This document shows, piece by piece, positions 13,000 to 44,274 of a DNA stretch of 64,000 bases. Under the pieces are notes generated by a model, which worked only from the letters and a program-made list of their open reading frames with translations, did no database searches and was not told where the DNA came from. Source of the DNA: Candidatus Phoenicimicrobium oleiphilum (GTDB lineage: Bacteria; Atribacterota; Phoenicimicrobiia; Phoenicimicrobiales; Phoenicimicrobiaceae); the NCBI GenBank assembly GCA_039638295.1, contig JBDIWJ010000004.1, forward strand, positions 8,874-72,873, given 5' to 3'. Each line of letters starts with the position of its first letter. Position 1 is the first letter of the stretch. The translations under genes and the position numbers were made by a program.

Positions 13000-14018
13000 A
13001 TACTAAAATTTTAGAAATAAATCCTGAAAAAATAGATTTAAATAAGATAAAAATGGCTGCAGAGGAGATAAAGCAGGGTAACTTGGTGGCTTTTCCGACC
13101 GAGACAGTTTACGGTTTGGGGGCAGATGTCTACAATAAGGAAGCAGTTACTAAAATATTCAAGGTTAAAGGAAGACCTTTTAATGACCCGCTAATTGTTC
13201 ATATTGCAAAAATAGAGGAGCTACAAAGGCTATCAAAGTATGTTCCTCCAGTGGCTTTACAATTAGCAAAAATATTCTGGCCTGGTCCTCTTACCTTAGT
13301 TCTTAAAAAATCCGAGTTAGTTTTAGATATTATAACTGCTGGTTTGGACACAGTTGCCATTAGAATGCCAGCTAATAATATCGCCTTAAGTTTAATAAGG
13401 GAATCTCAAACTCCTATTGTGGCTCCCAGTGCCAATATATTTGGAAGAACCAGTCCCACCAATGCCCAGCATGTGGAAGATGATTTAGGTGGTAAGATAG
13501 AGATGATTATTGATGGAGGTAAGACAGAAGTAGGGGTAGAATCTACTGTGTTAGATATAACTGTTGAACCTGTCCAGGTACTGCGGGCAGGAGGGGTATC
13601 GGTAGAACAATTAATGAAAGTAATTGGTAAGGTAAAAATTAGCAAAGAATTGGAAAGAGGTTTCCGTTCACCGGGGATGTTAAACACTCATTATTCTCCC
13701 CAGGCAAGATTAATTTTGGTGGAAAAAATGGGGGACACTCAGATAGAAGAGGTTCGTAGATTGGCTTATAAATATAAAGTGCAAGGGCATAAAGTAGGAA
13801 TAATGGCCAAAGAAGAAAATCAGGATAAATATAGTGAATTTGAAGTTAAAGTTATAGGTAAAGGCAGCGAATTAAAAGAATGTGCTGCAAATCTCTTTTC
13901 AGTTTTAAGGAGTTTTGATAAAGAAGGGTTTGAGATTATTATTGCTGAAGGATTAGAAGATCAGGGTTTGGGTCTGGCAATAATGGAGCGGTTAAGAAAA
14001 GCCGCTGCCCCTAAATAA
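12996..14018 (+). CDS. tsaC: L-threonylcarbamoyladenylate synthase (Sua5/YwlC-type TsaC)
   Basis: 340 aa with the YrdC domain (FPTETVYGLGAD...SPSANIFG) and a C-terminal Sua5 domain. Confidence 0.85.
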   Translation: MNTKILEINPEKIDLNKIKMAAEEIKQGNLVAFPTETVYGLGADVYNKEAVTKIFKVKGRPFNDPLIVHIAKIEELQRLSKYVPPVALQLAKIFWPGPLTLVLKKSELVLDIITAGLDTVAIRMPANNIALSLIRESQTPIVAPSANIFGRTSPTNAQHVEDDLGGKIEMIIDGGKTEVGVESTVLDITVEPVQVLRAGGVSVEQLMKVIGKVKISKELERGFRSPGMLNTHYSPQARLILVEKMGDTQIEEVRRLAYKYKVQGHKVGIMAKEENQDKYSEFEVKVIGKGSELKECAANLFSVLRSFDKEGFEIIIAEGLEDQGLGLAIMERLRKAAAPK

Positions 14019-14097
14019 AAATAAATGTGTTAGCATAAACCTTAGAGGTATTTTCTTTACGCGTTTCTCGATACGCAATACGCGATACAAATAAAAT

Positions 14098-14126
14098 TTG
14101 ACAGAAGTAGAAAGATATGCTAATAT
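14098..14126 (+). promoter_or_regulatory. Sigma-70-type promoter of the aro leader
   Basis: TTGACA (14098-14103), a 17-nt spacer, then TAATAT (14121-14126) preceded by TGC (extended -10-like). Confidence 0.65.
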
Positions 14127-14153
14127 CTTAAAAAATGTTAAGGAGTAGACAAG

Positions 14154-14246
14154 GTGGCTACAAAAAAAGAATTTGTTAAATTAATAAATTCCTTTAATTT
14201 TTATTATTACTATTATGCTACCGATGTTTATGCCTTAGCATGGTAA
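14154..14246 (+). CDS. Aromatic (Tyr-rich) leader peptide, 30 codons: MATKKEFVKLINSFNFYYYYYATDVYALAW
   Basis: SD AGGAG at 14141-14145, GTG at 14154 and TAA at 14244-14246. Five consecutive Tyr codons lie at 14202-14216, and the peptide has 6 Tyr, 3 Phe and 1 Trp in total. It sits between a consensus promoter and a terminator upstream of the aro/tyrA operon. It is not in the ORF track because it is too short. Confidence 0.6.
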   Translation: MATKKEFVKLINSFNFYYYYYATDVYALAW

Positions 14247-14300
14247 AAGATTAAAACAAGATATCATAGGCATAGACATCGGTTTTATGCCTATGATATC
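14220..14300 (+). promoter_or_regulatory. Mutually exclusive attenuator hairpins
   Basis: 14220-14234 pairs with 14269-14283 (15 bp, one G-U). 14260-14274 pairs perfectly with 14286-14300 (15 bp) and is followed by a U/A-rich tract. The two helices share 14269-14274. Confidence 0.6.
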
Positions 14301-14317
14301 TTTATATATTTATATAT

Positions 14318-14361
14318 AAAGGTCATAGGTTTTTTAAATTCCTATGACCTTTTTTATTTTT
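14318..14361 (+). terminator. Leader (attenuator) terminator
   Basis: AAAGGTCATAGG, an 11-nt loop, CCTATGACCTTT, then TTTTTATTTTT. It lies 213 nt upstream of the aroH start. Confidence 0.7.
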
Positions 14362-14382
14362 AGTCTATCCATTTACGAAAAA

Positions 14383-14445
14383 GTAGGAAAGGAGCTCGAT
14401 TTATTAAGGCCGTAAAAAATCCGGGGCGGATGAATCCGCCCCCAC
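14383..14445 (+). repeat. Double-hairpin intergenic repeat, family E copy 3
   Basis: GTAGGAAAGGAGCTCGATTTATTAAGGCC, a spacer, then GGGGCGGATGAATCCGCCCCCAC. Confidence 0.7.
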
Positions 14446-14458
14446 ACAATAAATAAAT

Positions 14459-14494
14459 GTCATTGTGAGTTCTGATTTATCAGGGCGTGGCAAT
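14459..14494 (+). repeat. GTCATTGTGAG...CGTGGCAAT repeat, family G copy 1
   Basis: GTCATTGTGAGTTCTGATTTATCAGGGCGTGGCAAT. A related copy lies at 38422-38457. Confidence 0.55.
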
Positions 14495-14573
14495 TTTAAA
14501 TTATGTCAAAGGACCATCACCTGACAAAGTCTGTCAGTAGAACCGTCCCCTTGACATAAAAGGAGGTATACAT

Positions 14574-14969
14574 ATGTTAGTGCGAGGAATAAGAGGGGCT
14601 ATAACTGCGGATAGCAATACTAAAGAGGAGATTATAGAAAAGACTAAAGAATTATTAATCACTTTAAAAAAAGAAAATGATTTCAAAATTGAAGATATAG
14701 TAAGTATTTTTTTTAGTGTCACTCCAGATTTAAATGCTGCCTTTCCAGCCCAGGCAGCGCGAGAATTAGGTTGGGGTATAGTTCCCCTTTTTGATATGCA
14801 AGAAATAGATGTTCTGGGGAGTTTACCCAGATGTATTCGAATATTAGTACAGATAAATTGCCAAAAAAGTCAACAAGAAATAAAACATTGCTATTTGGAG
14901 GGAGCAAAAATATTACGAAAAGATTTAATTAAAGAAATTTCAGATCAAAAGGAGGGTGAATTCAAGTGA
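14574..14969 (+). CDS. aroH: Chorismate mutase, AroH class
   Basis: 131 aa whose N-terminus [13 protein letters not shown] and overall sequence resemble B. subtilis AroH. Strong SD AAGGAGG. Confidence 0.85.
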
Positions 14970-16018
14970 TTATTGTGATGAACGGAAAAGCTGACGATTC
15001 TGATGTGGAAAGAGTAATAGAGAAATTGCACGAAATGGGGCATAAAGTGCACATCTCCCGAGGAGAAAGACGAATTATTTTAGGAGTAATCGGGGATGTT
15101 GAAAATTTAGCCTCTGTCCCTTTTTATGCTTTTAACGGAGTCGAAGAGATTATCCGTATCCTAAAACCCTATAAATTAGCCAGCAGAGAATTTAAAGACT
15201 TTGATACTATTATTAAAGTAAAGGAGGTAACTATTGGAGGAAAAGAAATTGTGGTGATGGCCGGACCTTGTGTTGTAGAAGATGAAAAACAGATATTTGA
15301 GACTGCCCATCATGTTAAAGCCTTAGGAGCAAAAATATTACGAGGAGGAGCTTTTAAACCACGAACTTCTCCTTACAGCTTTCAGGGATTAGGGGAGAAA
15401 GGTTTAAAATTATTGGCTCAGGCAGCTAAGGAAACAGGTTTGGCAATAGTTACTGAAGTGATGTCGGTTAACCAGATTGATTTAATTGCCAAATATACTG
15501 ATATATTTCAAGTAGGTGCTCGTAATATGCAAAATTTTGTATTATTAAAAGAATTGGGCAAACTTAAAAAGCCGATACTGCTTAAAAGAGCAATGTCTGC
15601 TACTATAGAGGAACTGTTATTATCAGCAGAATATATTTTATCTCAAGGAAATTATGAAGTAATCTTGTGTGAGCGAGGAATACGTACTTTTGAAAACTAT
15701 ACTCGTAATACTTTGGATTTGAGTGCAGTTCCTGCCTTAAAGGAATTAAGCCATTTGCCAGTAATAGTAGATCCCAGTCATGGTACTGGAAAGTGGAAAT
15801 TGGTAAGTCCAATGGCTAAAGCAGCCATAGCGGCTGGAGCAGATGGCCTGCTTATTGAAGTCCATCCCGACCCCAAAAGTTCACTTAGTGATGGTGCCCA
15901 AACCTTAAGACTTGATACTTTTACTCAACTAATAAAAGAGCTAAGACCAATAATCCAGGCAGTAGGTCGAGAATTTGCTCTACCTACCGAATATGAATTA
16001 GAGAGGATGAAGAATTAG
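14966..16018 (+). CDS. aroF: 3-deoxy-7-phosphoheptulonate (DAHP) synthase, type I-beta with N-terminal regulatory domain
   Basis: 350 aa with a ~70-aa ferredoxin-like/ACT-like N-terminal domain followed by a KDO8P/DAHP synthase I-beta core (GPCVVE...[17 protein letters not shown]...DPSHGTG), as in the Thermotoga-type enzyme. Confidence 0.85.
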
Positions 16019-17301
16019 TGGAACTTGTTTTAGAAAGAATCAATAAATTAAAAGGAGATATATCTGTCCCGGGAGATAAATCTATCTCTCATCGCTCTCT
16101 AATTTTAGGGTCTATTGCCCAAGGAGAGACTCGAATATATAATTTTTTAAATTCCCTGGATTGTCTTAGTACTTTAGAATGTATGCGAACATTAGGGGTA
16201 GAGATAAAGAGGGGTAGCAACAACTCTATTAAGATAAAAGGCAAGGGATTATATGGATTAGAGGAACCGAAAGATATACTTGATGTGGGAAATTCAGGGA
16301 CAGCTGTTCGCCTCTTAGCTGGTCTGATTAGTGGTCAAAAATTTTATTCTGTTTTAAATGGTGATGATTCAATCAGAAAAAGACCTATGAAAAGAGTAGT
16401 CGAGCCCCTTAGATTAATGGGAGCAAATATATGGGGGAGAGAGGATGGTGAACTAACCCCTTTAAGTATAAAAGGAAGCAGACTTAATCCTCTTTGCTAT
16501 ACTTTACCAGTTGCTAGTGCTCAGGTGAAATCAGCTCTCTTACTGGCCGGCCTTTATATTAAAGGTGAGACAGTAATTAAAGAACCCTTGCCTACCAGGG
16601 ATCATACTGAGAGAATGTTAAAGATTATGCAGGCAGATATAAAGATTTCTCCTCTTGAAATTAAAATAAGAGGTGGAAGGGAATTAAAAGGTACTGATAT
16701 ATTTGTACCTGGAGATATTTCTTCCGCTGCTTATTTTATAATAGCAGCGAGTATGTTAAAAGGTTCTCAGGTTATAATTAAGCAAGTAGGTTTTAATCCT
16801 ACCAGGATTGGGATAATCGAAATACTAAACAAAATGGGTGCAAAAATCGATATCTTAAATTACCAGATAAAATCAAATGAGCCACGAGCTGATTTAAAGA
16901 TAGAATATTCAGAATTAAAAGGGGTAGAAATTGGTAAGGAAAATATACCTTTTCTAATTGATGAATTACCCCTTATTGCTGTATTGGCAACTCAAGCTCA
17001 GGGTGAAACGGTGGTAAGCGGAGCAAAGGAATTGAGGGTAAAAGAGACTGATCGAATAAAGGCGATAGTCAATGAATTAAGAAAGATGGGAGCAAATATT
17101 AAGGAAAAAGAAGATGGTTTTATTGTAAAGGGCCCTTCTAAATTACATAGCGCAGTCTGCAATAGCTATAATGATCATCGGATTGCTATGTCTTTAGCGG
17201 TGGCGGCTTTATTAGCTGAAGGTAAAACTATTATTAAAAATTCAGAATGCATAGATATATCTTTTCCTGGTTTTGAAAAAACTCTACAAAAATTAATTTA
17301 A
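16018..17301 (+). CDS. aroA: 3-phosphoshikimate 1-carboxyvinyltransferase (EPSP synthase)
   Basis: 427 aa with PGDKSISHRSLI, LDVGNSGTAVRLL and KETDRI motifs. GTG start overlaps the preceding stop. Confidence 0.9.
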   Translation: MELVLERINKLKGDISVPGDKSISHRSLILGSIAQGETRIYNFLNSLDCLSTLECMRTLGVEIKRGSNNSIKIKGKGLYGLEEPKDILDVGNSGTAVRLLAGLISGQKFYSVLNGDDSIRKRPMKRVVEPLRLMGANIWGREDGELTPLSIKGSRLNPLCYTLPVASAQVKSALLLAGLYIKGETVIKEPLPTRDHTERMLKIMQADIKISPLEIKIRGGRELKGTDIFVPGDISSAAYFIIAASMLKGSQVIIKQVGFNPTRIGIIEILNKMGAKIDILNYQIKSNEPRADLKIEYSELKGVEIGKENIPFLIDELPLIAVLATQAQGETVVSGAKELRVKETDRIKAIVNELRKMGANIKEKEDGFIVKGPSKLHSAVCNSYNDHRIAMSLAVAALLAEGKTIIKNSECIDISFPGFEKTLQKLI

Positions 17302-17305
17302 AAGT

Positions 17306-17417
17306 ATGATTGTAAGCCAAAAGTAAATAAAAATAGTAATGTATGGGCACTATGCATCGTGCCCATAGGAGAAGATTGGCAATAGTATAGCAAGGGCACA
17401 ATTCATTGTGCCCCTAC
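17306..17417 (+). repeat. Two-hairpin ~110-nt repeat, family F copy 2
   Basis: ATGATTGTAAGCCAAAAGTAAATAAAAATAGTAATGTATGGGCACTATGCATCGTGCCCATAGGAGAAGATTGGCAATAGTATAGCAAGGGCACAATTCATTGTGCCCCTAC. It lies inside the aroA-aroE gap. Confidence 0.8.
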
Positions 17418-17548
17418 AATTTTTTACAAATTTTATAAAAAAGTTTTGAGTTTTGAACTATCAACTAACGACTATTCACTATAGACTAAAGACTAATTTT
17501 TTTCTTCCTCTCGAGGGAGGTACATCTAAGATGGGAGTGTAGGTGTAA

Positions 17549-18415
17549 ATGAAAAAAGAGATAAATGGGAAGACTAAAATAATTGGGTTAATTGGTGAAA
17601 ATATAGAAAATAGTCTTTCTCCTTTTATTCACAACCAAATAATATTTAAATATTCTTTAGATTATTGTTATCTTCCCTTTCAAGTAAGATGGACAGATTT
17701 AAAAGATGCTATTCAAGGGATAAAGGCTCTGAATATAAAAGGAGTAAATATTACTTTCCCTTACAAAGAAAAAGTAATTGATTTTTTAGATGAAGTAGAA
17801 GAATCTGCTCGAAGGATAGGCGCAGTAAATACTATTGTCAATAATAAAGGAATTCTTACCGGTTACAACACTGATGTAATCGGCTTTAAGAGAAGTCTAC
17901 AGGAATATGGAAAATTTGTCATAAAACAAAAAAAAGCAGTTATTTTTGGAGCAGGAGGAGCTGCTCGTGGGGTAGTTTATGCTCTTTTAGAGGAAGGAAT
18001 AGAAGAGATATGTATCTTTAATCGAACTTTAGAAAAAGCCAAAAAGATTAAACAGGATTTTTCTTCCTTCTTTCCCAGGAGCTGTATTAATGCATTTTCC
18101 TTAGATGAAGAGAATTTGAAAGATAAGATAGAAAGGGCTCATATTATAGTTAATACTACTTCTTTAGGAATGCCCCCTCAAATCGATAAAACTCCTTTAC
18201 CAGATGAAAAATTATTTCACTCTAATCTTTTAGCCTATGACCTTATATATCATCCCACTAAGACTATTTTTCTAAAGCAAGCAGAGAGGGCAGGAGCAAA
18301 GATAATTAATGGTTTACCGATGTTAGTTAATCAAGGCATAGAAAGTTTTTATCTCTGGACTGGACTTAAACCAGAGGGTAAAGAAGTATTAGAAATATTT
18401 AGACAAGTTACATAA
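17549..18415 (+). CDS. aroE: Shikimate dehydrogenase
   Basis: 288 aa with SLSPFIHN, NITFPYK, GAVNT and the GAGGAARG Rossmann motif. Confidence 0.9.
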   Translation: MKKEINGKTKIIGLIGENIENSLSPFIHNQIIFKYSLDYCYLPFQVRWTDLKDAIQGIKALNIKGVNITFPYKEKVIDFLDEVEESARRIGAVNTIVNNKGILTGYNTDVIGFKRSLQEYGKFVIKQKKAVIFGAGGAARGVVYALLEEGIEEICIFNRTLEKAKKIKQDFSSFFPRSCINAFSLDEENLKDKIERAHIIVNTTSLGMPPQIDKTPLPDEKLFHSNLLAYDLIYHPTKTIFLKQAERAGAKIINGLPMLVNQGIESFYLWTGLKPEGKEVLEIFRQVT

Positions 18416-18577
18416 ATTAGTCAGTTAGTGAATAGCGAATAGTTACTAGTTTTCCACTTTACCACGTGAGTATTAACCTCATACAACATAGGAGATTGCA
18501 ACACAAGGTAAAGTGGGGGTTTTACTAAATACTATTAACCAACGACTAACGACTATTTAAGAAAGGAGAAGAAAAAA

Positions 18578-19726
18578 ATGCTAAGATTTCTGGAAGCAGG
18601 AGAATCTCACGGGAAAGGTCTAATAGGAATAATAGAAGGCTTACCAGCCGAGCTTTCCATAAGTGAAGAAAAGATCAATCGAGACCTGGAGAGACGTCAG
18701 GGGGGTTATGGTAGAGGAGAGAGGATGAAGATTGAACAGGATAGAGTTGAAATATTATCTGGAATAATAGAAGGAAAGACAATAGGAAGTCCACTTGGTT
18801 TGCTGATAAAAAATAAAGATTGGGAAAATTGGCAGGAAAAGGAATATCCTCCATTGACTATTCCTCGACCAGGACATGCAGATTTTACCGGAGCCATAAA
18901 ATATGGATTTAAAGACTTAAGAAAAGTTTTAGAAAGAGCGAGTGCTCGACAAACTGCTATGAGAGTAGCAATAGGTTCAGTTGCCAGTATACTTTTAGAA
19001 GAGTTCAATATAAATATTTACAGTTATGTACTAAGGATTGGCAAGATTAAAGCTAAGAGAATCGCTTCTTTTAATCAAAAAGTAAAAGATGAGATTGCTA
19101 AATCCCCGGTATATTGTATAGATGGGGTTGCCTCCATTGGAATGTGTCGAGAAATCGATCGAGCCCGTGAGAAAGGAGATACTCTGGGAGGAGTATTTGA
19201 GGTGATAATTACGGGGGTTCCTGTTGGGTTAGGAAGTTATGCTCAATGGGACAGACGTTTGGATGCGCGCCTGGCTTCAGCATTGATGAGTATTCCAGGA
19301 ATTAAGGCAGTTGAGATAGGTGAGGGAATAGAGGCTTCAGAAAAAAGAGGTTCAGTTGTTCATGATGAAATCTTTGTATATCAGGAATTGGAAACAAGCT
19401 CTTCCAGATATTACCGGGAGACTAATCGAGCCGGTGGTATAGAGGGTGGGGTAACTAATGGAGAAGCCGTAATTATTAGAGCTTACCTTAAACCCATACC
19501 TACTTTGATTAATCCTCTCCGTTCTATTGATTTTGCCAATAAAAAAGAGAACAGGGCAATTTACCAGAGGTCTGATATATGTGTAGTACCAGCTGCCAGT
19601 GTAGTGGGAGAGGCGGTAGCTGCCTGGGAAATAGCGGTAGCTTTTTTGGAGAAATTCGGTAGCGATTCTTTACTGGAAATTAAGGAAAATTATGAAAACT
19701 ATAAGAAGAGGCTTCAAAAGATATGA
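18578..19726 (+). CDS. aroC: Chorismate synthase
   Basis: 382 aa with N-terminus MLRFLEAGESHGKGL, then RPGHAD and RSDICVVPAA motifs. Confidence 0.9.
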   Translation: MLRFLEAGESHGKGLIGIIEGLPAELSISEEKINRDLERRQGGYGRGERMKIEQDRVEILSGIIEGKTIGSPLGLLIKNKDWENWQEKEYPPLTIPRPGHADFTGAIKYGFKDLRKVLERASARQTAMRVAIGSVASILLEEFNINIYSYVLRIGKIKAKRIASFNQKVKDEIAKSPVYCIDGVASIGMCREIDRAREKGDTLGGVFEVIITGVPVGLGSYAQWDRRLDARLASALMSIPGIKAVEIGEGIEASEKRGSVVHDEIFVYQELETSSSRYYRETNRAGGIEGGVTNGEAVIIRAYLKPIPTLINPLRSIDFANKKENRAIYQRSDICVVPAASVVGEAVAAWEIAVAFLEKFGSDSLLEIKENYENYKKRLQKI

Positions 19727-20244
19727 GAAGGAATATTATCATTACTGGCTTTATGGGAGCCGGCAAAAGTGTAGTAGCTAAACAATTAGCCCAAAAGTTG
19801 AAAATGAAATTTGTAGATACGGACAAGGTTATAGAAGAAAATCAAGGTATGAGTATAGCAGATATTTTTACTAGATATGGGGAAGATTATTTTCGACAAC
19901 AAGAAAATAAATTAGTAAAAGAACTATCCCAACAAGAAAATTTGGTCATTGCAACTGGTGGAGGGACATTACTTTCTTCGGATAATGCTGAAATGCTGAG
20001 TCAGAAAGGAGAGATAATTTGCCTTTATGCTGACCCTACAGTTATCTATAATCGGGTAAAAAGAAAGAATGATCGACCCCTTTTAAGAGGAGAAAATGTA
20101 TTGGATAACATTAACAAACTATTAAAGGAGAGAAAGAAGATATACGATAATATTAAGTTGAAGGTTGATACTTCTGATCTGAATATAGAGGAAGTTGTAG
20201 ATAGAATAATAGAGCTTTTGAAAGGTAAAGGTCTAAATAGATGA
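19723..20244 (+). CDS. aroK: Shikimate kinase
   Basis: 173 aa with Walker A GFMGAGKS, DTD and GGG motifs. Its start overlaps the aroC stop. Confidence 0.85.
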   Translation: MRRNIIITGFMGAGKSVVAKQLAQKLKMKFVDTDKVIEENQGMSIADIFTRYGEDYFRQQENKLVKELSQQENLVIATGGGTLLSSDNAEMLSQKGEIICLYADPTVIYNRVKRKNDRPLLRGENVLDNINKLLKERKKIYDNIKLKVDTSDLNIEEVVDRIIELLKGKGLNR

Positions 20245-21359
20245 AGGAGATAAAAATAAAAATTACCAAAGATGAAGAATATAATATTTATATCGAAAAG
20301 GGTATTTTGAGTAATTTAGATGAATATTTATCTAAAATAATAAAGAACAAAAGAGTCATCGTGATTACCAACCCCTTAGTGAATAGTTTATATGGAACTA
20401 AGTTATTATCTACTCTGAAGAAAGGTGAGTTTAGTACCGATTTTATAGAAGTTCCTGATGGGGAGAAATATAAATGTATATCAAGCGCAAATTATTTATA
20501 TGATGAATTATTGAAAAGAAAGGCAGACCGGTCTACCGGGCTTATAGCCTTAGGTGGGGGGGTTACAGGAGATTTAACCGGGTTTGTCGCTGCTACCTAT
20601 ATGAGAGGTTTATCTCTAGTGCATATTCCTACTACTCTTTTGGCTCAGATAGATAGTAGTATCGGGGGTAAGGTTGCAGTTGATCATCCTTTAGCTAAAA
20701 ATATAATTGGAAGTTTTTATCAACCGAAGGCAGTTTTTATTGACCCTGAGGTTTTATCTACTTTATCAGATAAGGATATAAAAAATGGAATAGTAGAGGC
20801 CGTAAAGATAGCAGTAATCAAATCCCCCGATTTCTTTAAATGGTTGGAAAGCAATATTTATCAATTATTAAATAGAGATATTGATATCTTATGTGAACTT
20901 ATAAAAAAATCTGTTAAATTTAAAGTAGATGTAGTTTTAGAAGATCCCTGGGAGACTGGATTACGTAAAATACTAAATTTTGGACATAGTATTGGTCATG
21001 CCCTGGAGGTTGAAGCCGGATATCAAGATTTAAGTCATGGAGAAGCAGTAGCCTTAGGTATGCTAATTGAAACTAAAATAGCTCGGAATAGAGGAATATG
21101 TTCAGATGAATTTGAAGAACAGATTAAATACATTCTGGCAATCCTTTACTCTTCTCAACCATCCAGATCAAAAGAATCTAAATCTGTATTTAAATATGTA
21201 AGAAATATAGATTATAACCGAATATGGGAAACTTTAACCTTAGACAAGAAAAATATTCAGGGGAAAATAAGATTTATCTTACTAAGAGCCCCGGGGAAAG
21301 TTATTTTAATTGATGACATAAACAAAGAGGAAGTAATAAAAGCCTTAGAAGAATTTTAA
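20241..21359 (+). CDS. aroB: 3-dehydroquinate synthase
   Basis: 372 aa with GGGVTGDLTGFVAATYMRG, GGKVAVD and HSIGHALE motifs. Confidence 0.9.
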   Translation: MKEIKIKITKDEEYNIYIEKGILSNLDEYLSKIIKNKRVIVITNPLVNSLYGTKLLSTLKKGEFSTDFIEVPDGEKYKCISSANYLYDELLKRKADRSTGLIALGGGVTGDLTGFVAATYMRGLSLVHIPTTLLAQIDSSIGGKVAVDHPLAKNIIGSFYQPKAVFIDPEVLSTLSDKDIKNGIVEAVKIAVIKSPDFFKWLESNIYQLLNRDIDILCELIKKSVKFKVDVVLEDPWETGLRKILNFGHSIGHALEVEAGYQDLSHGEAVALGMLIETKIARNRGICSDEFEEQIKYILAILYSSQPSRSKESKSVFKYVRNIDYNRIWETLTLDKKNIQGKIRFILLRAPGKVILIDDINKEEVIKALEEF

Positions 21360-21373
21360 AAGGAGGGAGAATT

Positions 21374-21829
21374 ATGATAAAGATAGGAATAATTAATGGA
21401 CCGAATTTAAATATGCTAGGGAAAAGGGAGCAGAAGATTTATGGAAATATAACTTTGGAAGAAATAAATCATAAGCTTAAATCATTTGCTGAGAAGGTAG
21501 GTATTGAACTTACCATAAAACAATCCAATTTCGAGGGGGAGATTATAGAATTTATTCAGCAATTCTCTTCCCAAGTTGAAGGCTTAATTATCAATCCAGC
21601 GGCTTATACCCACTACAGTTATGCTATTGCCGATGCTCTAAGAGATTGTCCTATCCCAATAGTTGAAGTTCATCTTTCCAATATATTTTCACGGGAGGAT
21701 TTTCGGGGAAAATCAGTAACTGCTCCTGCTTGTACAGGACAAATTGCCGGTTTTGGCTATCATAGTTATATTCTCGCTATCCACGCTCTTCAAGATTTGT
21801 TAAAAAAAGGAGAAAAACAAAATGGATGA
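21374..21829 (+). CDS. aroQ: Type II 3-dehydroquinate dehydratase
   Basis: 151 aa with INGPNLNMLGKRE, NPAAYTHYS and EVHLSNI motifs. Confidence 0.9.
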   Translation: MIKIGIINGPNLNMLGKREQKIYGNITLEEINHKLKSFAEKVGIELTIKQSNFEGEIIEFIQQFSSQVEGLIINPAAYTHYSYAIADALRDCPIPIVEVHLSNIFSREDFRGKSVTAPACTGQIAGFGYHSYILAIHALQDLLKKGEKQNG

Positions 21830-22727
21830 AGAAAGCGACTTTAAAAAAATAACTATTATTGGTGTGGGACTAATCGGTGGATCCCTCGGTTTGGCACTAA
21901 GAAAAGATAGACCAAAATTTAAAATTGTAGGCGTAGATAAAAAAGAAGTAATAGAAAAAGCCATTGTCCGGGGGGCAATTGATGAAGGGACAGTTAACTT
22001 CAAAGAAGGGGTAAAAGAAGCAGATATAGTAATTATGGCTACTCCAGTAAAAACAATTTTAGATTTATTACCTAAAATTAGTCCTTTTCTTAAGAAAGGG
22101 TGCCTGATTACTGATACCGGGAGCACCAAGGTCAAGATTGTTGAAACAGCTAATCAGGTATTATCGTCAGATATTCATTTTATTGGCGGACATCCTATGG
22201 CTGGTTCAGAAAAATATGGCATAGATTCAGCAGATTCCCATCTCTTCCAGGAAAAGACTTATATCTTAACTCCTACTAAGAAAAGTAATTTAATGGCCAT
22301 AGAAAAAATATTCTCATTGATTAAGATAATAAATGCAAACATACTGATATTAGATCCCTTAGAACATGACAGAGTTGTTGGTACAATAAGTCATTTACCC
22401 CAAATTATAGCTATATCCTTAATCAATGTGGTGGGTAGATTGGTTCAAGAAGAAAATAATAATAATTATCTTAGAGCCGTTGGAGGGGGGTTTAAAGATA
22501 TGACTCGAATTGCCCAAAGCCCTTGTAAAATTTGGGAAGATATCTGTGATACCAATAAAGAGACCATTCTGGAGATAATTCAAAAATTCAAAGAATATCT
22601 TAATTTGATAGAAGATAGATTAATTAATGACCCCGAAGGCCTAAGAGAAGAATTTCAAAAAGCCAGGAGATTAAGAGAAGTCATTGAGAATTTTCCTCAT
22701 TTATGTTATAATTCAAAAGGAAAATGA
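21822..22727 (+). CDS. tyrA: Prephenate dehydrogenase
   Basis: 301 aa with N-terminal Rossmann motif IIGVGLIGGS, then GGHPMAG and typical TyrA C-terminal domain residues. It is the last gene of the aro cluster. Confidence 0.85.
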   Translation: MDEESDFKKITIIGVGLIGGSLGLALRKDRPKFKIVGVDKKEVIEKAIVRGAIDEGTVNFKEGVKEADIVIMATPVKTILDLLPKISPFLKKGCLITDTGSTKVKIVETANQVLSSDIHFIGGHPMAGSEKYGIDSADSHLFQEKTYILTPTKKSNLMAIEKIFSLIKIINANILILDPLEHDRVVGTISHLPQIIAISLINVVGRLVQEENNNNYLRAVGGGFKDMTRIAQSPCKIWEDICDTNKETILEIIQKFKEYLNLIEDRLINDPEGLREEFQKARRLREVIENFPHLCYNSKGK

Positions 22728-22736
22728 GGAAAAATT

Positions 22737-23216
22737 ATGAGTTCTACCAATAAAGATGAAGTAAAAAATGTAGCTGTAAATAGAAAAGCATATCATGATT
22801 ATAGTATATTGGACACTTATGAAGCTGGGCTGGCTCTAAAAGGAACAGAAGTAAAATCTTTAAGGGAAGGCAAGGTTAGCCTGCGGGAAAGTTTTGCTCA
22901 ATTTGAAAATAACGAACTTTACTTGATGAATATGCATATTTCTCCCTATGCCTTTGGGAATATATTTAATGTGAACCCCAAGAGGAAACGTAAATTGCTC
23001 CTTCATAAGCGGGAAATTTACCGCTTAAAAGGGCAAGTTCAGGAGAAAGGCTTGACCTTGGTACCTTTACGAATTTATTTTAAAAGAGGTTATGCTAAGA
23101 TTGAATTAGCTTTAGCCAAAGGAAAAAAATTGTATGACAAACGCAGGGCATTAGCTGAAAAGGATGCCCAACGAGAAGTGGAAAAAGAAATAAAGAATAA
23201 AAAATGGGGGCGATAG
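22737..23216 (+). CDS. smpB: SsrA-binding protein SmpB
   Basis: 159 aa with [16 protein letters not shown] and KLLLHKREI motifs. tmRNA follows immediately. Confidence 0.9.
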
Positions 23217-23562
23217 GTTTCGACAGAGATAGGAGAGGTAAAAACAGCGAGTCGAGGTGCCATGTCCTCGTAAAACCATGGAAAAACAATAAACGCTAAT
23301 AATAGAGAATTAGCACTCGCAGCCTAATCAGGTTGCACATCCATAAAAGTCTTTCGTCTACGAGACTTTTACGGGTGTAACATAAAGTAGACTATCTTTT
23401 TCAGGATTGCCCTGACCTGAAAAAGAGAAAGTTAAGGGCTGGCTCAATTTACATCCTGTCTATGGGAGGTAAAAAGAGCGAGAACAAAATCATAGACTAC
23501 ACTCGTAGCGGTTTTTACCGAAATATCTTTGGACGCGAGTTCGAATCTCGCCGCCTCCACCA
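23206..23562 (+). ncRNA. ssrA: Transfer-messenger RNA (tmRNA)
   Basis: The 5' GGGGGCGATAGGTTTCGACAG pairs with the 3' CGCCTCC-A-CCA, including the G3-U70 alanine identity pair. The T-arm is GGACGCGAGTTCGAATCTCGCC. The tag reading frame at 23295-23327 encodes ANNRELALAA followed by TAA. Confidence 0.9.
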
Positions 23563-23581
23563 TTTTATAGGTTAATAATAG

Positions 23582-23609
23582 CCCTTTGGCTTTTGCTAAA
23601 GGGTTTTTT
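23582..23609 (+). terminator. Terminator after ssrA
   Basis: CCCTTTGG-CTTTTG-CTAAAGGG followed by TTTTTT. Confidence 0.7.
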
Positions 23610-23636
23610 GTAAGGGCGCAATTCATTGTGCCCAGG
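23610..23636 (+). repeat. Family F half-copy (second hairpin only)
   Basis: GTAAGGGCGCAATTCATTGTGCCCAGG matches the 3' hairpin of family F. Confidence 0.55.
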
Positions 23637-23723
23637 CAATATAATTATGACCAAAAAGTTGTAATTTAAAGCATCAGAATTTTTAAAATCCGGTGTTCTA
23701 AAATAAAGCAAGGGGGACAGTTT

Positions 23724-25436
23724 ATGGATTCAATAGGTTCTAAAACAAGCGTTAATTTTATACAGGAGATCATTGATAATGACAAAAAGGCAAATAAATA
23801 TAATGGTAGGGTTCATCTCCGGTTTCCCCCAGAACCTAATGGATATCTGCACATCGGTCATGCCAAGTCTATCTGCTTGAATTTTGGTTTGGCTGCAAAA
23901 AATGGAGGTCTATGCAATCTTCGCTTTGATGATACAAATCCCAGTAAAGAAGATATGGAATATATTGATTCTATAATTAACGATGTTCGGTGGTTAGGAT
24001 TTAATTGGGGTGATAGGCTTTTTTATGCCTCTGATTATTTTGAAAAAATGTATGAGTATGCCATTAGTCTAATTAAATTGGGTAAAGCTTATGTGTGTGA
24101 CCTGAGCCCTGAAGAAATTAAAGAGTACCGCGGAAGTTTTAAGGAACCAGGAAAAGAAAGCCCATATCGCAACCGTTCTGTGGAAGAAAATCTGGATTTA
24201 TTTCGTCGTATGCAGAATGGTGAATTTCCTGACGGTTCGCGGGTATTACGGGCTAAAATTGATATGTCTTCACCTAATCTGAACATGAGAGATCCTGTTC
24301 TCTATCGTATTTTAAGAGCCACTCATCCCCGGACAGGAGATAAATGGTGTATTTATCCTATGTATGACTATGCCCATCCTCTTGAAGATTATTTCGAAGG
24401 AATTACCCATTCCATCTGCACCCTGGAGTTTGAAGACCATCGTCCCTTGTATGAATGGGTTCTCAACACTTTAAATTTACCAGATCCACCTCAGCAGATC
24501 GAGTTTGCCCGTCTTAACTTAACTAATACAGTGATGAGTAAACGGAAGCTTCGCAAGTTGGTGGAAGAAGGATATGTGTCCGGTTGGGATGATCCTCGTT
24601 TACCGACCATATCGGGTCTGCGGCGTAGGGGTTACACACCGGAGGCTATTCGAAATTTTTGTGATAGAATCGGTGTGTCCAAGAGTAATAGCGTAGTAGA
24701 TATCCGTTTTCTGGAACATTGTATCCGTGAGGACTTAAACCTGCGAGCACCTCGGGTTATGGGGGTACTGCATCCTTTAAAGTTGGTTATTGTTAATTAT
24801 CCTGAGGATATAGTGGAAGAGATGGAATCGGAAAATAACCCTGAAGACTCTGCTGCCGGAACACGTAAGATACCTTTTTCCCGAATTCTTTATATCGAAC
24901 AGGACGACTTTTGCGAAAGCCCGCCCAAAAAATATTTCCGTCTGGCTCCAGGTAATGAGGTCAGATTAAAAAATGCCTATATTATTAAATGTGAAGGATT
25001 TATTAAAGATGAAAAAACAGGAGAGATCAAAGAAGTTCACTGTACATACGACCCAGAAAGCAAAAGCGGTAAACCGGGTGCCAAACGTAAAGTAAAAGGA
25101 ACTCTACACTGGGTTTCTGCAGCCCATGCTTTAGAAGCGGAGGTGCGTTTATACGACTATCTTCTGCTGGACCAGAATGAGGTAGCGGAAGAACAGGGGG
25201 AAGGGAAAGATTTTATAAATCAGCTTAACCCAAACTCTCTGGAGGTATTAACTAATTGCCTGGTAGAACCTAGTTTGGCTGGAGCTGCACCTGGAAGTAG
25301 ATACCAGTTTATGCGAAAAGGTTACTTTTGTGTGGATCCTGATTCAACGTCAGATAAATTAATATTTAACCGCATTGTATCTTTACGGGACACCTGGGAT
25401 AAAATCCGGAAAGCCAACAAAAATCAGAAATTCTAA
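23724..25436 (+). CDS. glnS: Glutaminyl-tRNA synthetase
   Basis: 570 aa with HIGH (PNGYLHIGH) and VMSKR motifs. The sequence is GlnRS-type throughout ([31 protein letters not shown]). Confidence 0.9.
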
Positions 25437-44201: not shown

Positions 44202-44274
44202 GCAGGGGGCGGATTTATCCGCCCCGCATTGTTTTATTAATTTTTCTAACGGGTTCGATAAATCGAACTCCTAC
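44202..44274 (+). repeat. Double-hairpin intergenic repeat, family E copy 4
   Basis: GCAGGGGGCGGATTTATCCGCCCCGC, a spacer, then GGGTTCGATAAATCGAACTCCTAC. Confidence 0.75.

Follow-up and report, generated by a model that had tools for sequence, protein, structure and literature searches.

The 64,000-nucleotide stretch of DNA considered here (the window; Candidatus Phoenicimicrobium oleiphilum, contig JBDIWJ010000004.1) carries an operon for aromatic biosynthesis, preceded at 14098–14361 by an element that is probably a transcription attenuator with a tyrosine-rich leader peptide. The regulated genes occupy 14574–22727 (coordinates are window positions on the + strand unless noted otherwise) and encode an AroH-type chorismate mutase (aroH), 3-deoxy-D-arabino-heptulosonate 7-phosphate synthase (DAHP synthase, DAHPS), aroA, aroE, aroC, aroK, aroB, aroQ and, at 21822–22727, the prephenate dehydrogenase tyrA. 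These assignments, made in a preliminary description of the DNA, are borne out by NCBIfam hits, and the gene order is the same in relatives. The host belongs to the Atribacterota (JS1-like), its DAHP synthase being 81–94% identical to proteins from Atribacterota metagenome-assembled genomes (MAGs) and single-cell genomes. It is not a Firmicute, and the low-G+C setting against which the element had been viewed in that description does not hold.

The element begins with a promoter (14098–14126) made up of a −35 hexamer TTGACA (14098–14103), a 17-nt spacer ending in TGC, which provides an extended −10, and a −10 hexamer TAATAT (14121–14126). Transcription would begin near 14133. A Shine-Dalgarno (SD) sequence, AGGAG (14141–14145), is followed 8 nt further on by the GTG start of a 30-codon open reading frame (ORF; 14154–14246, stop codon TAA), which reads (M/V)ATKKEFVKLINSFNFYYYYYATDVYALAW. 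Aromatic residues make up 10 of the 30, most conspicuously in the run F-N-F-Y-Y-Y-Y-Y (14193–14216), where five Tyr codons follow one another (14202–14216). Such a (TAY)5 string occurs once in the window, both strands included, against 0.06 expected from mononucleotide shuffles, and no other codon-run leader ORF was found in the 64 kb. The element ends in an intrinsic terminator (14318–14361) with a 12-bp stem (14318–14329/14341–14352), an 11-nt loop and a T-run (14350–14361); the sequence 3' of the stem is TTTTTTATTTTT. The RNA as a whole (14130–14365) has a minimum free energy (MFE) of −77.4 kcal/mol, with z = −9.2 against 200 dinucleotide shuffles. Promoter, SD sequence, GTG-started ORF with its five Tyr codons, and terminator had all been recognized in the preliminary description, and every part is in place; the extended −10 comes in addition.

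The leader RNA can form a chain of competing helices between segments here called 0 and A to E. Segment A (14220–14234, within the ORF, codons T-D-V-Y-A) pairs with 14269–14283, the 3' part of segment B (14258–14283), in a helix of 15 bp with one G-U pair (A:B, −22.0 kcal/mol), as had been proposed. The 5' part of B (14258–14276) pairs with segment C (14284–14302) to make the anti-antiterminator, a 19-bp hairpin (B:C, −25.3 kcal/mol) whose core is the 15-bp helix 14260–14274/14286–14300 seen earlier. Segment C can instead pair, through 14289–14303, with segment D (the 5' arm of the terminator) and the spacer. The 8-bp core of this C:D pairing, 14290–14297/14322–14329, contributes −8.0 kcal/mol and is present as described, but the antiterminator is not just these 8 bp: together with a palindromic spacer they form a hairpin of about 18 bp (14289–14330). 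The D:E helix of the terminator has an energy of −16.7 kcal/mol. The helices A:B, B:C, C:D and D:E overlap pairwise and all are conserved. To this chain, which was predicted correctly as far as it went, a sixth segment has to be added. Segment 0 (14135–14158) is the translation-initiation region itself, with the SD sequence and the GTG codon, and is able to pair with A' (14217–14241); the 0:A' pairing is part of the MFE structure of the full leader.

About 130 related loci carry the element. In a protein-anchored set, the block 14089–14360 is conserved at 78–92% identity in all Atribacterota DAHPS loci whose sequence extends over the region upstream, and the corresponding alignment (A1) shows hardly any variation in the promoter hexamers and the TG. 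Metagenome loci were collected with a degenerate pattern running through segments A, B and C, which yielded at least 119 stretches; among those listed, about 110 carry the leader and 9 are chance hits. The resulting alignment (A2) comprises 110 distinct leader versions, and the pairing statistics that follow refer to it. D:E is paired in 99.5% of cells, with compensatory changes in 6 of its 12 pairs, and C:D in 99.2%, with compensatory changes in two pairs. For B:C the figure is 96.8%, with compensatory (double) changes in four pairs, and for A:B it is 98.0%, with one such pair. When the partners are slid by 1–3 columns as a control, pairing falls to 28–57%. Three lineages, namely the distant clade, L009 and L012, show joint changes at positions common to B, C, D and E, a pattern to be expected only of a segment C that alternates between B and D as its partner. 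RNAalifold, applied to the C-to-D stretch alone, predicts the C:D hairpin independently. The 0:A' pairing is kept in 89.5% of cells over the 110 sequences, and in the distant clade the initiation region differs (AUGCUAAGGAAACA) yet pairs with the same A'. Its presence in the MFE structure, its retention and its re-formation in the distant clade all point to a modeled ground state of three hairpins, 0:A', B:C and D:E, in which the start site is closed and the terminator formed.

Conservation of the ORF is of a different kind. Of 93 main-clade sequences, 90 start with GTG and 3 with ATG, the SD sequence is AGGAG, and the stop codon falls in the same column in all 93. Indels within the ORF are multiples of 3 (3 or 6 nt) in 12 of 13 cases, the exception being a frameshift in L007, whereas none of the 135 indels in 14247–14352 is a multiple of 3, all being of 1, 2, 5 or 8 nt. 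Variation in codons 2–13 is spread over the codon positions (0.10/0.19/0.09 at positions 1/2/3) with no third-position bias, which implies that amino acid identity is not selected there. The codons of the run are limited to TAY and TTY, with an invariant T at position 1, A or T at position 2 (Tyr or Phe) and T or C at position 3. In the main clade, codons 22–30 vary at none of the three positions, which is what a constraint by RNA pairing would produce. The comparison with relatives that the preliminary description had suggested thus finds the frame, the aromatic run and the paired segments all kept, with compensatory changes. On this comparative evidence the ORF appears to be translated, and its product appears not to be a functional protein. 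Four representative leader peptides gave no significant NCBIfam or Pfam hit at E ≤ 10 (the single listed match had E = 0.19 and 11.5 bits against a cut-off of 277), and eight leader peptides are absent from a collection of 15 billion proteins, which indicates that they have never been called as genes. A type I toxin or other micro-protein was considered and rejected, since the N-terminus shows no constraint, a hydrophobic helix is absent and the ORF always lies upstream of aro genes.

The leader ORF is disrupted at two loci. L007:4167–4430 has a 1-nt deletion in the run (FNFYYYFMLPMFMP*), and L191:126–389 has stop codons inside it (..FNFY*). These are possibly constitutive or degenerate alleles, or sequencing errors.

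Some MAGs carry a second DAHP synthase of 340 amino acids, about 82% identical to the first, which stands alone outside the aro operon. It is preceded by the same scaffold, with about 80% nucleotide identity, in which the leader reads ...NSFNYFFFYFTTDVYALTS. The two types can come from the same MAG, as in CAZWFH01, the source of both L037 (Tyr type) and L013 (Phe type). In the main clade, the 85 leaders in front of aroH-DAHPS-aroA... have at least as many Tyr as Phe codons (more Tyr in 38 of 42 distinct runs, ties in 4), whereas the 21 leaders in front of a stand-alone DAHPS have more Phe than Tyr in 10 of 10 distinct runs (Mann-Whitney p = 5e-13 for the difference in composition). There are no Trp codons in any run across the main-clade loci. 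The distant clade (MLRKQSQKIFYFNFYYFYFIGDVYALVS) has mixed runs before its aroH operons and Phe-richer runs before lone DAHPS genes. We regard this tracking of the downstream unit by the composition of the run as the strongest single argument that the codons, as read by a ribosome, would be the sensor.

There is an even chance, in our estimate, that the leader and the DAHPS gene were duplicated together and that the resulting sister attenuators, one Tyr-rich and one Phe-rich, were reprogrammed by A-to-T or T-to-A changes at codon position 2, which would give isozyme-specific control of pathway entry without a regulatory protein. The Tyr-type element would be specific for Tyr, or for Tyr together with Phe. 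No Trp-type or other sister leader was found among the 119 metagenome stretches listed, nor by nhmmer in the 1.43 Mb of fetched loci or in the window.

The Phe-type loci and the distant clade show some further variation. Four Phe-type loci (L013:1250–1450, L016:3880–4082, L014:4800–5000 and L012:1015–1215) have in common a conserved stretch of approximately 190 nt that separates the terminator from the start of the stand-alone DAHPS and holds a hairpin (TCCGGA...TCCGGA); this stretch is possibly a second regulatory element or a promoter. Behind the Phe-type leader at L149:12027–12290 (minus strand; NYFSFYF) come a short DAHPS ORF and aroA-aroE-aroC, an arrangement that may be either a recombinant of the two paralogous loci or a chimeric assembly. 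Four loci of the distant clade (L112, L124, L141 and L144) have the order aroH-DAHPS-DAHPS-aroA, with tandem DAHPS genes behind a single mixed F/Y leader.

The swap of run codons between paralogs bears directly on whether a ribosome is the sensor at all. The aromatic operons of Firmicutes use T-boxes or TRAP, and one of the hairpins here might be stabilized by a tRNA as in a T-box, by a small ligand or by a TRAP- or PyrR-like RNA-binding protein, with the ORF being incidental. The long and highly structured RNA, with the z-score given above, would suit such a sensor, and there are weak sub-threshold Rfam matches that include a PyrR site, at 18.5 bits against a gathering score of 54. However, no Rfam family matches near the element at gathering thresholds in a search of the whole window, and at E ≤ 10 the region 13900–14700 gives chance-level hits only, with no hit to the T-box (RF00230). 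The best of the sub-threshold hits, Bacteroid-trp (26.3 bits against 49), lies on the minus strand and covers the terminator hairpin alone. Repeated protein-binding triplets are absent, as is any specifier or T-box motif. Against this kind of sensing stand also the conserved frame, start and stop of the ORF with its indels in multiples of 3, the flips between A and T at position 2 of the run codons while the scaffold is unchanged, and the position of the folding switch described below. Sensing of this kind is extremely unlikely.

How the helices compete was followed by folding growing transcripts, with the 5' limit set by a ribosome stalled early in the run. With the 3' end at 14282–14298 the MFE structure contains A:B, at 14302–14322 it contains B:C, at 14326–14346 it contains A:B together with the 18-bp antiterminator hairpin 14289–14330, and from 14350 onwards the terminator state (B:C + D:E) is reached. 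An RNA from A to D, in which A is free, folds into A:B + C:D in 110 of 110 homologs. If the RNA starts at B and again ends with D, so that A is hidden as it would be under a ribosome that has reached the stop codon, B:C forms in 105 of the 110 and C:D in none. Folding with and without a mask, as suggested in the preliminary description, agrees with the logic preferred there when applied to truncated or growing RNA; full-length equilibrium folds are uninformative. The ribosomal A site was also scanned codon by codon with a footprint model, which is thermodynamic only. In the window the antiterminator state is kept up to an A site at Tyr19–21, depending on the footprint, and is lost from codon 22 on, and in 107 of 110 homologs the switch falls between two codons before and one codon after the last aromatic codon (−2 to +1).

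These observations can be assembled into a ribosome-mediated leader-peptide attenuator of the his/pheA type that would control the shikimate-chorismate mutase-tyrA operon in Atribacterota, a reading to which we assign a probability of about 85%. All features of this class that can be checked in a sequence are found: an SD sequence with a maintained ORF, a run of end-product codons, a terminator, mutually exclusive antiterminator and linking helices, and suitable placement of the codons. In this scheme, transcription would begin near 14133 and a ribosome would load onto the nascent leader. When charged tRNA-Tyr (and tRNA-Phe) is abundant, the ribosome would reach the stop codon at 14244 and cover the 3' half of A; B would then pair with C over 19 bp, D would be left for E, and RNA polymerase would terminate at the T-run (~14355–14361). 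When charged tRNA is scarce, an early codon of F-N-F-Y-Y-Y-Y-Y would sit in the A site, with the front edge of the ribosome short of A. Segment A, being free, would pair with B once B emerges, C would form the 14289–14330 antiterminator with D, E would be without a partner, and transcription would proceed into aroH...tyrA. If no ribosome is loaded, 0:A', B:C and D:E would form, giving default termination with the start site closed. The duplicated sister element with its Phe-rich run would control the stand-alone DAHP synthase isozyme in the same way. Actual stalling of the ribosome, the efficiency of termination, the amino acid specificity and the kinetics are what we infer from these features.

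The same parts could also be read out in another way. Stalling might lead to termination, or the peptide end TDVYAL(T/V)S might act at the stop codon as a TnaC-like arrest or sensor peptide that senses free tyrosine. When the ribosome stalls as late as the last or last but one aromatic codon, enough of A is already covered for B:C to form, the C-terminal residues and the position of the stop codon are invariant, and the preliminary description, too, had held the opposite logic possible from the sequence. Such opposite logic, however, would switch off Tyr synthesis under Tyr starvation, and starved ribosomes halt at the first hungry codon, which is 18 nt upstream of A. As for a sensor peptide, the invariance of the C-terminal codons includes synonymous positions and matches the A:B and 0:A' pairings, the leader in the window ends in ALAW rather than ALTS, and L007 reads the stretch in another frame. 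Either form of this read-out is highly improbable. The logic that had been preferred at the outset, in which a stall at the early Tyr codons leads to read-through and arrival of the ribosome at the stop codon leads to termination, has the support of both the comparative and the folding evidence.

Several points weigh against attenuation of this type or against its presumed specificity. When the full leader is folded at equilibrium with a ribosome-sized mask placed at each codon in turn, the terminated state (B:C + D:E) always wins, so that regulation must be kinetic. The free 5' part of B (14258–14268) could nucleate on C while A:B persists, and that A:B would persist long enough is a matter of steric reasoning about the resulting pseudoknot. 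In principle, the initiation region could also pair again with A' behind the stalled ribosome. On the comparative side, the search pattern fixed parts of A, B and C, and part of their invariance in A2 is thus imposed, while most of the compensatory changes stem from few lineages. With regard to specificity, the runs mix Phe and Tyr codons, which makes it uncertain which amino acid is sensed. In Corynebacterium glutamicum, the aroR leader (Phe-Tyr-Phe) upstream of aroF, a DAHP synthase gene, attenuates transcription (Neshat et al. 2014, via PMC11802643) and, according to that review, is reported to respond to Phe and not to Tyr.

Between the terminator and the aroH ribosome-binding site (RBS) lies a variable spacer (14362–14573; 212 nt in the window) that contains repeat-like modules and is not part of the switch. 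Its sequence is not conserved, and its length in relatives ranges from 38 to about 400 nt. The spacer is pertinent to the idea that the element is an independent unit, encoding a micro-protein or a small RNA (sRNA) of about 220 nt, and that the aro operon is expressed from a promoter of its own. The element does own a strong promoter and a strong terminator, its C-terminal TDVYAL(T/V)S is invariant, and attenuated leader RNAs can work in trans in other bacteria (rnTrpL/peTrpL papers). In the window, the 212 nt to aroH include a promoter match, TTGACA-16-TATGTT (14551–14578). This is the only promoter-like match in the spacer, and it overlaps the aroH start codon, so that a transcript from it would lack an RBS. 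In L006, L008 and L019 the unconserved spacer shrinks to about 40–50 nt, which leaves no room for a promoter, and a second promoter in 14362–14573 was rejected on these grounds. Moreover, wherever it occurs, the element immediately precedes aroH or DAHPS and points the same way; the 1.43 Mb of loci, which had been gathered via the element or the DAHPS gene, and the 64-kb window yielded no copy in any other position. The N-terminal peptide is unconstrained, the C-terminus is invariant at third codon positions as well, fitting RNA pairing, and the balance of Y and F in the run goes with the gene that lies downstream. An independent unit is thus very unlikely. A second role in trans for the terminated leader RNA of about 220 nt, or for the invariant ...TDVYALTS end of the peptide, is less likely than the isozyme-specific control considered above.

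The modules of the spacer are present or absent in relatives, and one G+C-rich hairpin (14419–14442), which reads as a minus-strand terminator, has a second, inverted copy at 44205–44234. They look like insertions of repetitive extragenic palindrome (REP) or miniature inverted-repeat transposable element (MITE) type. In L010, which has a spacer of about 400 nt, an IS110-family transposase gene is also inserted between the leader terminator and aroH (L010:3486–4535), giving an attenuator-operon distance of about 1.4 kb.

Two stretches of the operon (17250–18620 and 22600–23800) were scanned for + strand terminator-like sites, and none was found inside the operon but one weak consensus match in aroE (17958–17978). 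Directly after tyrA come smpB (22737–23216) and the transfer-messenger RNA (tmRNA) gene (23206–23562; tag ANNRELALAA), followed by a + strand terminator-like site at 23580–23605. In the same stretch (22684–23605), the 3' end of tyrA holds a near-consensus promoter-like site, TTGAGA-17-TATAAT with a TG.

The classic systems with which the Atribacterota leader can be compared are hisL of Salmonella and E. coli and pheL of E. coli. All have a short, SD-preceded ORF with a run of end-product codons and a chain of overlapping helices in which the position of the ribosome chooses between antiterminator and terminator, with termination by default when there is no translation. In the his leader, the helices A:B, C:D and E:F are opposed to B:C and D:E. 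A ground state of three hairpins with two alternative helices is likewise what is predicted here, with 0:A', B:C and D:E on the one side and A:B and C:D on the other. The likeness does not extend to sequence or Rfam relationship, and the element is a member of none of the Rfam leader families Trp_leader, Phe_leader, His_leader, Leu_leader, Thr_leader, Bacteroid-trp and leu/phe leader. Unlike hisL and pheL, the Atribacterota leader has Tyr (plus Phe) as its regulatory codons, the first segment of its ground state is the translation-initiation region itself, and its stalled ribosome would free segment A instead of masking it. The host is also different, and it is the whole common pathway, with chorismate mutase and tyrA, that would be regulated.

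For control of the first step into the shikimate pathway by a leader peptide, the direct precedent is the aroR-aroF system of C. glutamicum. It has three regulatory codons (F-Y-F) compared to runs of 6–8 in Atribacterota, is actinobacterial and unrelated in sequence, and is not known to include paired Tyr and Phe sister elements for two isozymes. A parallel of another kind is found in E. coli, where the DAHP synthase isozymes aroF, aroG and aroH are under TyrR/TrpR control (PMC11802643). Here, too, each DAHPS is tied to a different aromatic end product, and the Tyr-linked one is co-transcribed with tyrA (aroF-tyrA in E. coli). The E. coli specificity comes from protein repressors and allostery, whereas in Atribacterota the transcriptional specificity apparently resides in the leader codons of duplicated attenuators. 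"Putative attenuators" before tyrA operons in other phyla have been listed from Merino's database, without detail on leader peptides (PMC1173090).

Another aromatic leader was encountered in Lactobacillaceae loci retrieved in the protein-anchored search (L067:1549–1605, L039:1612–1671, L041, L042, L043, L045, L047, L053, L057, L065, L068, L071 and L072). An SD-preceded ORF of 17–21 codons ends in an aromatic run, ..NRFYYYWF.. or ..NSYYYYWFT, in which all three aromatic amino acids including Trp are represented; a highly structured leader (z = −8.9) and a terminator come next, just before tkt-aroE-DAHPS-aroB. It has the same layout as the Atribacterota element and is unrelated to it in sequence; nothing in Rfam matches it, and the literature search turned up no account of it. 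Probably it represents a leader-peptide attenuator of the aromatic kind that is independent of the Atribacterota one. Leaders with aromatic runs are thus probably commoner on aro operons than published work suggests, which makes the Atribacterota case less surprising.

A literature search found no description of the Atribacterota element or of any Atribacterota attenuator. The preliminary description had called a tyrosine-run leader over the whole pathway "not a textbook case". The element is indeed undescribed, but its kind is not unprecedented, as aroR-aroF of C. glutamicum and the FYYYWF leader of Lactobacillaceae demonstrate. The Atribacterota attenuator is new as a family and ordinary, indeed textbook, in its mechanism.

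The element adds a well-supported family of cis-regulatory RNA to a phylum known almost solely from metagenomes, and its approximately 130 instances could seed an Rfam model. With it, the reach of leader-peptide attenuation would come to include tyrosine and the common aromatic pathway in its entirety, and annotation would gain short leader ORFs that have never been called as genes. The Tyr-rich and Phe-rich pair, elements on one scaffold before two DAHPS isozymes whose own presumed specificity differs in codon identity alone, amounts to a convenient natural experiment on how the composition of the run relates to the specificity of an attenuator. Since attenuation needs a ribosome close behind RNA polymerase, the strict conservation of the element would also be genomic evidence of coupled transcription and translation in Atribacterota. 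A cultured member of the phylum reportedly has ribosomes on either side of a membrane that apparently encloses the nucleoid (PMC7736352). If the attenuator reading is true, co-transcriptional translation in Atribacterota is implied.

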